Positions 22,230-25,883 are shown, counted from the first letter of the stretch. The stretch: 64,000 nt of DNA from an uncultured delta proteobacterium (GCA_963716725.1 CAVQUB010000011.1:384001-448000); one strand, 5' to 3'. Numbers and translations are program-made. The notes: a model not told the origin generated them from the letters alone.

Positions 22230-22385
22230 CCCACCGCGCACGCACGCGCCCCTCGCACGCGCACGTGCCCCTCGCACGCGCACGCGCGCCCGACCCCGAC
22301 CCAAAGGCGCGGAGTACGCAGAGCACGCGGAGAACGCAGGGGTCTTCTTCCTCAGAGTCAGAGCCCACACTCGACCCCGACCCGT
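22230..22385. repeat. Low-complexity intergenic repeat cluster
   Basis: CCCCTCGCACGCGCACG twice, CGACCC units, four 9-bp units of consensus ACGCRGRGN at 22307-22342. Confidence 0.75.
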
Positions 22386-22511
22386 TGCCGGATCAGCCCG
22401 GTGAGCAGCGCCACCACGCGATTACCGAGCACGACGCATCTCGCGGCGTCCTCCGCCGACGCATCTCCGGTCAGCGCCGCGATCTCGACTGCAGCGACGG
22501 CTGGCGCCGCC

Positions 22512-24245
22512 TAGTGCCGCGCGGCAGAAGTTTCGCTGGTTTCTTTTCCGTGTGCGTGTCGTCGGTGTGGTGGGGTGACATGATCGACTACAGCGCGTTC
22601 GCGGGCCGAGCGCACGGTGGTCGTCCGACGGTTCCGCTCGCGCTGAGGGCTGAAGAGCGCGCGCGGATTGAGGAGGCGTTGCGACCCGCCAGGGCGGAGC
22701 AGCGGCTGGTTCGTCGGGCGCAGGCCGTGTTGATGATGGCGGACGGAGTGCCTGCGACGGACATCGCCCGGCTCCTCGGGGTGCACGTGCGCACGGTGGA
22801 CGACTGGCGCAAGCGCTTCGACTGCGCGGCACCTAGCGAGAGACTGGCGGACGCCCCGCGCTCGGGACGGCCGCCCTCTCTCTCTCGGACACCGTAGCGG
22901 CTCGAGTAGAAGCAGAAGCGTGTCGACCGCCGAGCGACGTCGGCGTGCCCGTCACGCACTGGTCAGCGTCGTTGCTTGGCGTGCACGTTCGCGCGCAAGG
23001 AATTCAGATCAGCGACCGGTCGGTGGGCCGCATACTCAAGGATGCTGACCTGCAACCGCATCGGCAACAAATGTACCTGACTTCGCACGACGACGAGTTC
23101 AGGGGGAAGCGCGACGACGTGCTGCGCGTCTACTACGAGACGCCAAAGAAGGAGCACATCGTGTGCGTCGACGAGAAGACCGGCATCCAGGCGCTCGAAC
23201 GCCGCTACGCTGACATTCCGATGGTGGCCGGACAGCCCGTCCGCCGCGAATTCGAGTACGTCCGCCATGGCACGCTCTGCTGGATGGGAGCGCTCGATGT
23301 CCGCCGCGGCAAGCCGTTCGGCTTCATCTCGGACGGGCACGACAGCGACACCTTCGTCGAGCTACTCGACGTCATCGAGGCGGTCTACCCGCCGGGTCGT
23401 GGCCACATCATCATGGACAATCTCTCCGCCCACGACACGCCCGACGTGAACGAGTGGTTTGACGAGCACCCACGCTGGACGCGCCACTTCACGCCGAAGC
23501 ACGCGTCGTGGCTCAACCAGATCGAGTGCTGGTTCTCGATCCTCACGCGCCAACTTCTCGCACGAGGCTCGTTCACGTCAACCGACGACCTCGCGGCGAG
23601 GATCGACGCGTACGTCGCGTGGTATCTGCAGACCGACCGACCCTTTCGCTGGTCGTACCGCCCCGAGTCCTGGGCCGAATCCAGAAAAATCCCCTCACTT
23701 TCTGCGAAGAAAGCCGCAACTGTTTCGGAGTGAGGCCCGACCACACGGGGATGGCACAGGAAGGGCGAAAGCTCGGAAGATTTGGGGATGGGACGGACGA
23801 GGTGATCGGTGCGCTGATCGAGGTGCATCGGCATCTCGGTCCATGGCTGATGGAATCCGCATATGAGGCCTGTCTATCTGCCGAGCTGTCCGAACGACGG
23901 CTCAAGTTCGAGCGGCAGCGACCGCTACCAATCCGCTACAAAGGCGTACACCTTGACTGCGCCTATCGCCTCGACCTGGTCGCTTCCAGATCGTATCCTC
24001 CTGGAGCTCAAGGCGGTCGAGCGGCTGCTCCCGATTTACGAAGCGCAGGTCATCACCTATCTGCGCCTTTCGCGGTTGCCCGTCGGCCTGCTCGCCAACT
24101 TCAACGTGACCGCGCTCAGAAATGGCCTGCGGAGGCTAACGCCTGACCACCCCAAATCCTTCCGCTCTTCCGCCCTTCCTGTGAGAGCCCAAATGAGCGC
24201 AGGTCTCAGGGGCGAATCCACTCGAACTTCGGCCGCGCGGCACTA
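22512..24245 (+). mobile_element. IS630-family insertion sequence, both ends present
   Basis: Left CTAGTGCCGCGCGGCAGAAGTT (22511-22532) and right AACTTCGGCCGCGCGGCACTAG (24225-24246) are inverted repeats with 1 mismatch; TA within CTAG at both ends. Confidence 0.93.
22580..23733 (+). CDS. IS630 transposase in two frames (HTH part to 22897, DDE part to 23733)
   Basis: RRAQAVLMMADG...IARLLGV...DAPRSGRP; CVDEKTGIQALER, EYVRHGT, IMDNLSAH, FTPKHASWLNQIECWFS. Confidence 0.92.
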
Positions 24246-24246
24246 G
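23751..24246 (+). CDS. GxxExxY family protein (PD-(D/E)XK-like); frameshift near 23985, motif altered
   Basis: IGALIEVHRHLGPWLMESAYEACL, RLDLV, LLELKAVERLLPIYEAQVITYL, GLLANFN. Confidence 0.88.
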
Positions 24247-25844
24247 TTACACTTCGTGCGCGCGCCTTCGACGGTGTTCGTGATCGAGTTGAAGAACTGA
24301 CCACTCGAGGTGAATTTGCCAGTCGCATCGATGCACCAGACGTCCACGTCCGCGGGCGCCTCGCCCTTGGTCACGTCGAAGTCGAGGGGGCCGGACACAC
24401 CATCGTAGTCGATCTTGCCGTCGGGCTCGAGCAGCGCGCTGAAGGCGGCGTTCACCTCACTCGGGCCAGCGGGGATCTTCGCTCCGCCCACGCTGCGGGA
24501 CAGCCCCTGATTCATGGCCGCGCCGGTTGGACTCTGCTCGCTGGTGGCGACGAGCGCGTAGGCCGCGAGGTAGGTCGCGTCGTAGGCGTGCTCGGCGTAA
24601 GTGCCGGGGTCCTGGTTGGCGTTGAAGGCCTTGAAGCGCCCCTTGAACGCTTGGTATTGCGGCGTTTCGCGCCCCGGCGCCGTCCCGAACACGTTTGGCC
24701 GAAGCGTGCCCGCCGTGTCCAGCAACTGCTGGATCTTGCCGCCGTCGCTGAACAAATAGATGCGCTTGTCAGCGGCCGGATCCTGCTTCAAGCCCGCGAA
24801 CAGCCCCGTCACTGTCTCCGTGGTGCCAACCAGGAGCACGATCTGCGGAGCGTGCGCCGCAATGGCCTCGACCGTGGTGACGAAGTCCGTGGTGTCCGGC
24901 TTGTAGTCGATGCGTAGGAAGTTGTCGCCGTTGCCGTTGGCCGGGAGACCGTTGAACTTGATCAGCGCGCTAGCGGCGTTGGCGAGCCCCGTGCCGTAGG
25001 CGTCGCCGAGCACCGTCATCGCGACTTTGATGGGCGTACCGTTGGCAATGGCCTGATCGATCCGGATTTGCTTCTCGAACTCGGAGACCAGCGCCGCCAT
25101 CGGGATGGCCTGCAGCGCATCGCTGGGAGGAATGCGCCAAACCAGCCCGTTGTCACCGAGATCCGTGATGGCCGGGCTCGTGGCCGAGTACGAGAGCAAG
25201 AGCGATCCGGCCGGGATGGTGATCTTGGTCGCGATCTCGAGGGTGACGCTGCTGAAGGCCGGTCCGATCGACAGCGGGACCCGGACCTCTTGGGCCAGGT
25301 GTCTGGCGACCTTGCTCGGATCGGCGGAGTCGTCGCAAGCCAGGACTGCGATGCGACGGCGCTCGGTCGTACCCTTGACGGGGATGCCGACGGCGGTCTG
25401 CTCGAGCTCGTTGATCGCGAGCTGCACGCCTTGCCAGGCAGGGGTGCCGCTGGAGATGTCCGGCCCCGTGAGCGGCCCGATGAACCCGATCACGACCGTG
25501 TCGTCTTCGGCGAGCGCAGCGGCCGGGACCACCTCCGCGCACTCCGGGGTGGTGAGCTGCACACAGATCCGCCCCGGGCGCCGGCAGATGGCGGGGGCGC
25601 CGCCGAAGCGCGCGCTGCACTCTTGGTTGGTCTTGCAGTCGCCGAGGGCACACACCTTGTCGGCCGTGCACACCGCATCGGCAAACTCGGCACCTTTGGC
25701 GACGCAGTCTGCCGTCGTCTCGCACTGGGCGACATCGGTGTCGACCACCAGATTGCAGGAGCTGGAGGCACCACCGAACGCAAGGCCAAGGCCGGCGGCA
25801 AGGATGGCCCCACGCCATCGGATTCGTCGTTTGGTGCGCGGCAT
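24243..25844 (-). CDS. ABC-type (branched-chain amino acid-like) substrate-binding protein with Cys-rich N-terminus
   Basis: IGFIGPLTG, GVQLAINE, IGPAFSSVT, SATSPAITD, AYDATY, DYDGVSGPLDFD; stop TAG coincides with the IS target CTAG. Confidence 0.85.
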   Translation of the reverse strand: MPRTKRRIRWRGAILAAGLGLAFGGASSSCNLVVDTDVAQCETTADCVAKGAEFADAVCTADKVCALGDCKTNQECSARFGGAPAICRRPGRICVQLTTPECAEVVPAAALAEDDTVVIGFIGPLTGPDISSGTPAWQGVQLAINELEQTAVGIPVKGTTERRRIAVLACDDSADPSKVARHLAQEVRVPLSIGPAFSSVTLEIATKITIPAGSLLLSYSATSPAITDLGDNGLVWRIPPSDALQAIPMAALVSEFEKQIRIDQAIANGTPIKVAMTVLGDAYGTGLANAASALIKFNGLPANGNGDNFLRIDYKPDTTDFVTTVEAIAAHAPQIVLLVGTTETVTGLFAGLKQDPAADKRIYLFSDGGKIQQLLDTAGTLRPNVFGTAPGRETPQYQAFKGRFKAFNANQDPGTYAEHAYDATYLAAYALVATSEQSPTGAAMNQGLSRSVGGAKIPAGPSEVNAAFSALLEPDGKIDYDGVSGPLDFDVTKGEAPADVDVWCIDATGKFTSSGQFFNSITNTVEGARTKCN

Positions 25845-25883
25845 CCCCAGACGCTCGAACCGTAGCACGACTTCGCCGCCGGC

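Follow-up and report, generated by a model that had tools for sequence, protein, structure and literature searches.

Mobile insertion cassettes (MICs) are the closest described counterparts of the element analyzed here. MIC231 of Bacillus cereus is reportedly one such cassette, derived from IS231, a member of the IS4 family. Insertion sequences that carry passenger genes are called "transporter IS" in ISfinder usage. We analyzed a window of 64,000 nucleotides from an uncultured delta proteobacterium (GCA_963716725.1, CAVQUB010000011.1:384001-448000); it corresponds to C11:384001-448000 in the genome of the window, G000, whose assembly is 84% complete. Within this window, an interval of 528 bp in the tail of an IS630-family transposase gene is probably a mobile insertion cassette of the IS4 type that has a GxxExxY gene as its passenger, lies nested in the IS630 element, and was amplified by it. 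Like MICs, the cassette is bounded by IS4-family TIRs, lacks a transposase, and carries one passenger gene. It also shares with them target duplications of the length typical of the family, gene-less miniature relatives, and a presumed mobilization in trans. In contrast to MIC231, its ends and 9-bp duplication fit the IS10 subgroup rather than IS231, and the host is GC-rich (67%). Its passenger, moreover, is a GxxExxY gene with inverted 8-mer arrays of its own, and the copy examined is nested in, and appears to have been spread by, an unrelated IS630 element.

The outer element resembles the IS630 family in its DDE_3 transposase, its TA duplication within CTAG, and its inverted repeats of about 30 bp, and the transposase of a cassette-free relative ends in the right repeat. 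Its internally deleted copies, dispersed at new TA sites, are comparable to the MITE-like derivatives of IS630. What distinguishes it from ordinary IS630 elements and their derivatives is a foreign insert of 537 bp in the transposase tail (528 bp of cassette and 9 bp of duplication), which 11 of 11 structural variants have retained.

Two further systems recall the innermost part of the locus. As with REP/REPIN sequences and RAYTs, short inverted repeats, which are also found apart from the gene, flank a small gene of nuclease type. Yet the framed gene is PD-(D/E)XK-like (PF13366) rather than a Y1 HUH transposase, and the likeness is one of layout only; in addition, the repeats are tandem 7-9-mers instead of single hairpins, and gene-less arrays are few in G000. 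We rejected the gene as a REP/RAYT member since no family but PF13366 matched it. In 23S rRNA intervening sequences with ORFs, inverted repeats able to pair in the transcript surround a small ORF. The ORF examined here likewise lies within inverted repeats that pair as a long stem, but the locus is outside an rRNA gene, and the protein belongs to a different family.

The composite IS630 element and its insert

The composite element occupies 22511..24246 on the plus strand (1,736 bp including the CTAG contexts, which are present at both ends), with TA duplications at 22512-22513 and 24244-24245. Its inverted repeats (22511-22543 and 24214-24246) are 33 nt long and 82% identical. The transposase scores 175 bits against the NF033545 model for IS630 family transposases (cut-off, 100) and is laid out in two frames. 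The N-terminal helix-turn-helix part (22580..22897, plus strand) comprises 105 aa ending at a TAG and matches HTH_23 (9.4e-13), HTH_29, and HTH_28. The DDE part (22945..23733, plus strand) matches DDE_3 (PF13358; 4.5e-24), and its final 17 codons now lie inside the cassette. As read from the frames, the two parts are joined at CCGCCCTCTCTCTCTCGG (22871..22888, plus strand), a putative site of -1 frame shifting. Both this site and the two-frame layout recur in a 72%-identical IS630 element of another genome, G029 (locus L032, where the motif is at about 355-372), and their conservation in two elements suggests programmed frameshifting or transcriptional slippage. The layout is clean in three of the five full IS630 copies of G000 (those on C5 and C20 and the C11 copy of the window) and differs in the copies on C7 and C13; the C7 copy has lost one C of the CCGCCCTCTCTCTCTCGG run. 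The composite is inserted in the TA of the TAG stop codon (site 24243-24246) of a minus-strand gene for 541 aa (24243..25868). Since the TA duplication regenerates the stop codon, this gene remains whole.

The cassette extends from 23682 to 24209 on the plus strand and is 80% identical over its length to stand-alone elements in G006, a genome of the same genus. Without its cargo, the composite would measure 1,199 bp (1,736 - 537), matching the IS630 size of near 1.1-1.2 kb. An earlier note on this DNA held that the interval contains only a GxxExxY gene. This is indeed the case: the sole family match is PF13366 (TIGR04256), and no transposase lies inside. GxxExxY proteins form a widespread, multicopy family of unknown function, for which the one review listing it describes many transfers between bacterial divisions and archaea. 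In the window, the gene (23751..24246, plus strand) is frameshifted near 23985, and PF13366 positions 4-66 and 69-116 match in different frames with 69.7 and 47.4 bits (cut-off, 22). An intact copy reaches 146 bits on TIGR04256 (cut-off, 35). Residues G32, E35, Y38, D75, E85, and K87 are invariant in our alignment A1. The frameshift of the window copy parts D75 from E85 and K87, so that the nuclease residues are not in one open frame; the motif and the D...ExK residues share one open frame in 3 of the 32 copies in G000 and also in G006 (L060, 147 aa). A search of the sequences of solved structures with the intact protein gave no match at E values up to 1. The frameshift found in most copies (window 23977-23990, compared with the intact copy L017) is not a single-base change, as the six nucleotides TCGAAG are replaced by the seven nucleotides CTTCCAG; from its sequence, this replacement looks like a small inversion.

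As the earlier note observed, the 8-mer CGAATCCA occurs at 23676-23683 and again at 24213-24220, 537 bp apart. Taken alone, this repeat is within chance: the 8-mer is found three times in the window versus 1.76 expected, a count of three was reached in 25 of 100 shuffles, and 26 direct-repeat families occur within the 1.85 kb around the element. Its significance comes from its position. We judge the repeat to be real because the interval coincides with an element of 528 bp that was delimited independently in G006. With the boundary set by homology to the G006 elements, the copies of the target duplication are GGCCGAATC at 23673..23681 and GGGCGAATC at 24210..24218, the latter extending over the inner margin of the IS630 right inverted repeat. 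They are 9 bp long and match at 8 of 9 positions, with a chance probability of about 2.5e-4 at the local base composition. The note was therefore right to see a true insertion duplication; its 8-mer, however, is the 9-bp duplication read three bases out of register, and the element itself lies at 23682-24209.

IS4-type ends and the 9-bp duplication

We searched 61 genomes for relatives. G006 contains the interval on its own, and its element L033/L060 is 528 bp long, with perfect 21-bp TIRs (21/21) and the 9-bp duplication GACGCGGCG. About 20 loci of this element are present in G006, many of them internally deleted. The six copies with both ends are flanked by a duplication that is a perfect 9 bp in four, 9 bp with one mismatch in one, and only 7 bp in one; among the four perfect cases is an 84-bp derivative without the gene. 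When L060 and its 600-bp flanks were compared with the seven genomes of the genus in search of the empty site, only the cassette was matched and the flanks were not found. The G006 cassette has CT ends. Relative to its TIR, those of the window cassette are decayed, with 14 of 21 positions identical on the left and 17 of 21 on the right, and CA now stands at the left end. A different TIR, GGGTGCCTCCCTGAAACGGGGGC, bounds a second lineage of cassettes, found in another assembly of a deltaproteobacterium (L149 1419-1997 and L152 1419-1997), which has 9-10-bp duplications and the same order of TIR, leader of about 60 nt, array, gene, array, and TIR.

Similar ends belong to elements that encode a transposase. 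Within the bacterial family, 28 of the 121 genomes contain a TIR-like motif, compared with zero or one match in any genome for a control read backwards, and the matches often lie about 100 nt from contig ends, as is the case for multicopy insertion sequences. The element L090 (1,249 bp) has TIRs identical at 18 of 21 positions, a 9-bp duplication, and a DDE_Tnp_1 gene, and L102 (1,363 bp) encodes a transposase of 435 aa; the two score 221 and 209 bits, respectively, against NF033591, "IS4 family transposase" (cut-off, 152). Fragments from the C-terminal part of this transposase lie directly inside TIR matches in five genomes. The TIR of G098 is identical at 20 of 21 positions, and four of the five TIR matches in this genome adjoin such fragments at contig ends. 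The genome G130 combines IS4 transposase fragments with 27 PF13366 matches, many of them beside TIR matches. For the IS10 subgroup, the table of De Palmenaer et al. 2008 (PMC2266710) gives a length of 1200-1350 bp, CT ends, and 9-bp repeats.

The duplication also occurs without the gene. Elements of 98 bp from metagenomes have the same TIR around an unrelated core, with neither gene nor arrays, and are flanked by perfect 9-bp duplications. Overall, 9-bp duplications flank L060, L061, L064, L087, L090, L092, L104, L248/L254, and L250; in L063 and in the window, one of the 9 bp is mismatched, and L062 has a duplication of 7 bp. A clean duplication is absent from the transposase-bearing L102, the full cassette L249, and the small TIR-bounded element L096. 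Because the TIRs are common to elements with an IS4 transposase and to gene-less derivatives with 9-bp duplications, we ascribe the duplication to the ends and not to the gene.

The earlier note had proposed the opposite, namely that GxxExxY units are minimal mobile elements that make the duplication themselves. In its strongest form, the GxxExxY protein itself would move the 528-bp cassette, which would then be an autonomous transposon of a new, nuclease-based kind. Intact genes do exist, both in G006 (L060) and in G000 (three copies), and the function of the family is called unknown in the literature. Moreover, we found no IS4 partner in G006 or G000: relatives of the L102 transposase were not matched in either genome, the other DDE_Tnp_1 elements of the two have ends unrelated to the cassette TIR, and all 24 TIR matches of G006 are inside cassette copies. 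The missing partner also speaks against movement of the cassette by an IS4-family transposase, but weakly in G006, as this genome is only 73% complete. In metagenomes, the exact 21-nt TIR was found at 14 loci; searches of flanks of up to 2 kb with two queries found an IS4 transposase at none of the 14, and three of them have a GxxExxY gene. At two metagenome loci (L256 154-275 and L257 1009-1130), the ORF has been lost, leaving both arrays joined head to head as a hairpin next to the TIR; by their arrangement, these look like products of palindrome-mediated deletion.

Nevertheless, self-mobility of the cassette is very unlikely. Its TIRs are common, at 18-20 of 21 positions, to IS4-transposase elements that make the 9-bp duplication, and the 98-bp elements are duplicated perfectly without gene or arrays. 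PD-(D/E)XK nucleases cut DNA, and we know of none that carries out the strand transfer giving staggered target duplications; in Tn7, TnsA, which is a PD-(D/E)XK protein, functions only together with TnsB, a DDE protein. Nor are such ends usual around GxxExxY genes. Among 65 GxxExxY loci of other lineages with testable flanks, four were above control in a survey for outer TIRs; three of these were further arrays, and only L152 (sister of L149) had a true TIR and duplication. With 64 of 65 loci lacking them, we rejected outer IS-type TIRs as a general feature of GxxExxY genes.

Inverted arrays and the breakpoints at their edge

Inside the TIRs, the gene lies between two inverted arrays. In the window, the left array (23748..23791, plus strand) comprises about three 8-mers (CACAGGAAG GGCGAAAG CTCGGAAG) and overlaps the start of the gene; it forms the inverted repeat I1 (44 nt, 77%) with the right array at 24147..24190 (plus strand), as identified by an inverted repeat search. 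To place these arrays in context, we sampled 80 GxxExxY loci across many phyla of bacteria and in some archaea, of which 79 were examinable. The flanking inverted repeat beats 20 shuffles at 72 of the 79 loci, and at 54 it does so by at least 5 points. In most cases, each arm is built of three 8-mers in tandem, following the type ACCAC(A/G)GAG-N-CAC(A/G)GAG, and those of the window are the local version of this type. When the RNA of an intact copy is folded, its arms form a long-range stem that encloses the ORF (z score of -4.84). Inverted 8-mer arrays are general across phyla for GxxExxY loci, and no published description of them or of this packaging was found in the searchable literature.

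Gene-less arrays were also seen. One of them, at 22308-22339, just upstream of the IS630 element, consists of four 9-nt units (CGC[AG]G, 9 nt spacing). Units of this type also frame the only other PF13366 gene of G000, at C14:2120-2464, which is its only independent GxxExxY gene, and occur in small alternating clusters at C1:236960-237222 and C6:172867-173060. We rejected the idea that gene-less 9-mer arrays are numerous and dispersed throughout G000, since a loose three-unit pattern gave 74 matches versus 63 in the reversed control, which is no enrichment; no more than a few clusters seem genuine.

Rearrangements of the composite recur at the edge of the left array. Three independent junctions in G000 lie within about 5 nt of its outer edge, namely that of the class of copies lacking query positions 143-1244, C11:120644, and C2:111943. 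These junctions, together with a triplication of the array, make up a recurrent breakpoint at query positions 1239-1245, which correspond to 23738-23744 in the window (C1:35628, C11:121146, C2:112453, and C14:36337-36447). The triplication is in the copy at C14:36029 and includes a filler of 36 nt. Finally, a partial copy at C2:111943-112453, which runs from the left array through the right end of the IS630 element, sits inside a foreign pair of inverted arrays of the CGCCAAG type (GAACCGCCAAGGCGCCAAGGTCGCCAAG upstream and its complement downstream).

One reading of these breakpoints is that the GxxExxY gene and its arrays form a selfish module of a nuclease plus its own binding sites, which rides other transposons and whose nuclease cuts or recombines at the outer edge of the arrays. 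Such a module would explain the junctions at the array edge, the triplicated array, and the partial copy in a foreign array pair. It would also explain why the module is retained in 11 of 11 variants and why five truncated copies consist of the module side alone and no copy of the other side alone. As a counterpoint, the gene is broken in most copies, and replication slippage stimulated by the palindrome, acting where the long stem begins, would account for these breakpoints with no enzyme involved. On balance, we consider this reading doubtful.

The same breakpoints bear on how the cassette came to lie in the IS630 element. It could have entered by recombination, for example between array-bearing loci, in which case the flanking repeat would be microhomology. 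DNA bearing the cassette does recombine in G000, as indicated by the three junctions near the edge of the left array and by the partial copy inside another inverted array pair. Yet the insert begins and ends precisely where the G006 elements place the tips of the TIRs, the repeat on either side has the 9-bp length of the family with a match (8/9) hardly expected by chance (P of about 2.5e-4), and the IS630 element is otherwise uninterrupted there. We therefore regard entry by recombination as highly improbable and retain insertion of an IS4-type cassette as the preferred explanation.

Copies in the genome and a cassette-free relative

G000 contains 32 copies or derivatives of the composite: 5 full-length copies (1,736 bp, about 99% identical) and 27 deletion or truncation derivatives. 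By query positions, nine copies lack 416-1081, four lack 738-1216, six lack 143-1244, with a cassette part about 94% identical, and eight have other forms. CTA...TAG flanks, at differing loci, were found for all 26 copies with both ends; the six one-ended copies could not be scored. These flanks at different loci indicate that the copies transposed as IS630 elements, which bears out the proposal that the unit is now IS cargo. All 32 copies, in all 11 structural variants, retain the cassette. Five truncated copies have the right part only and none the left part only, and every deletion or truncation form retains the cassette and the right end; by a rough estimate, six independent random internal deletions would all spare the last 500 bp with a probability of a few percent. 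The GxxExxY gene is broken in 29 of the 32 copies. The three intact genes encode 147-164 aa, and two of them extend to the terminal TAG of the IS630 element. One deletion class includes forms with and without the frameshift, a distribution that suggests gene conversion between copies.

Within G000, the cassette is a fossil that moves only as IS630 cargo. This reading relies on the decay of its TIRs, on the absence of any match to an intact cassette TIR genome-wide, and on the broken gene in most copies.

Since all 32 copies hold the GxxExxY part, there is no empty allele in this genome, and no IS630 copy free of the cassette was found among them. The relative in G029, a genome of another genus, is different. 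Its element (L032) is about 1,190 bp long and lacks the interval. Aligned with the window, it matches to about 23680 and then from 24221, with a gap of about 12 nt in place of the about 540 nt of the window, and its transposase ends ...PKSWSEKHAQTSDWRH-TAG inside the right inverted repeat. This is the ending predicted in the earlier note, according to which removal of the interval restores a transposase that stops at the terminal TAG. The note had also expected an empty allele of about 1.2 kb. Such an allele does not exist in G000, but the G029 relative has nearly this size and joins at the predicted place; likewise, an interval present in all related copies, which would have spoken against insertion, is what we found within G000 but not among relatives. 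An empty IS630 relative with more than 85% identity and a single GG(C/G)CGAATC was not found among the 61 genomes.

Together, the stand-alone elements of G006 and the empty relative of G029 uphold the proposal that the interval is a discrete mobile unit inserted in the transposase tail with a target duplication. That it is instead original to the IS630 lineage, with an 8-bp repeat that is expected by chance in 1.85 kb, would agree with its presence in 32 of 32 copies in G000 but is scarcely credible given the G029 element without the interval and the intervals without a surrounding IS630 element in G006, G130, and metagenomes.

The preferred history of the insert has three layers. Innermost is the GxxExxY gene within its own inverted 8-mer arrays, as is usual for this gene family. 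In the bacterial family examined, this arrayed unit lies between 21-bp TIRs of the IS10 type of the IS4 family, making up the 528-bp transposase-less cassette, which most likely moved by cut-and-paste with an IS4-family transposase encoded elsewhere, generating 9-bp target duplications. One such cassette then entered an IS630 element past the DDE domain and ahead of the right inverted repeat, replacing only the last eight transposase codons and leaving both IS630 ends intact. The composite continued transposing into CTAG with TA duplication, presumably by means of its own transposase, and gave rise to the present copies.

This history provides one concrete and checkable route for the spread of GxxExxY genes, which would be captured between IS4-type ends and then distributed over 32 sites of a single genome as part of an IS630 element. 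It assigns the target duplications to borrowed transposon ends, so that the movement of the array-framed unit is a separate question. With gene copies that are whole or disrupted, derivatives lacking the gene, and a hot spot for breakpoints at the array edge, these genomes offer natural material for testing the action of the protein on its arrays.
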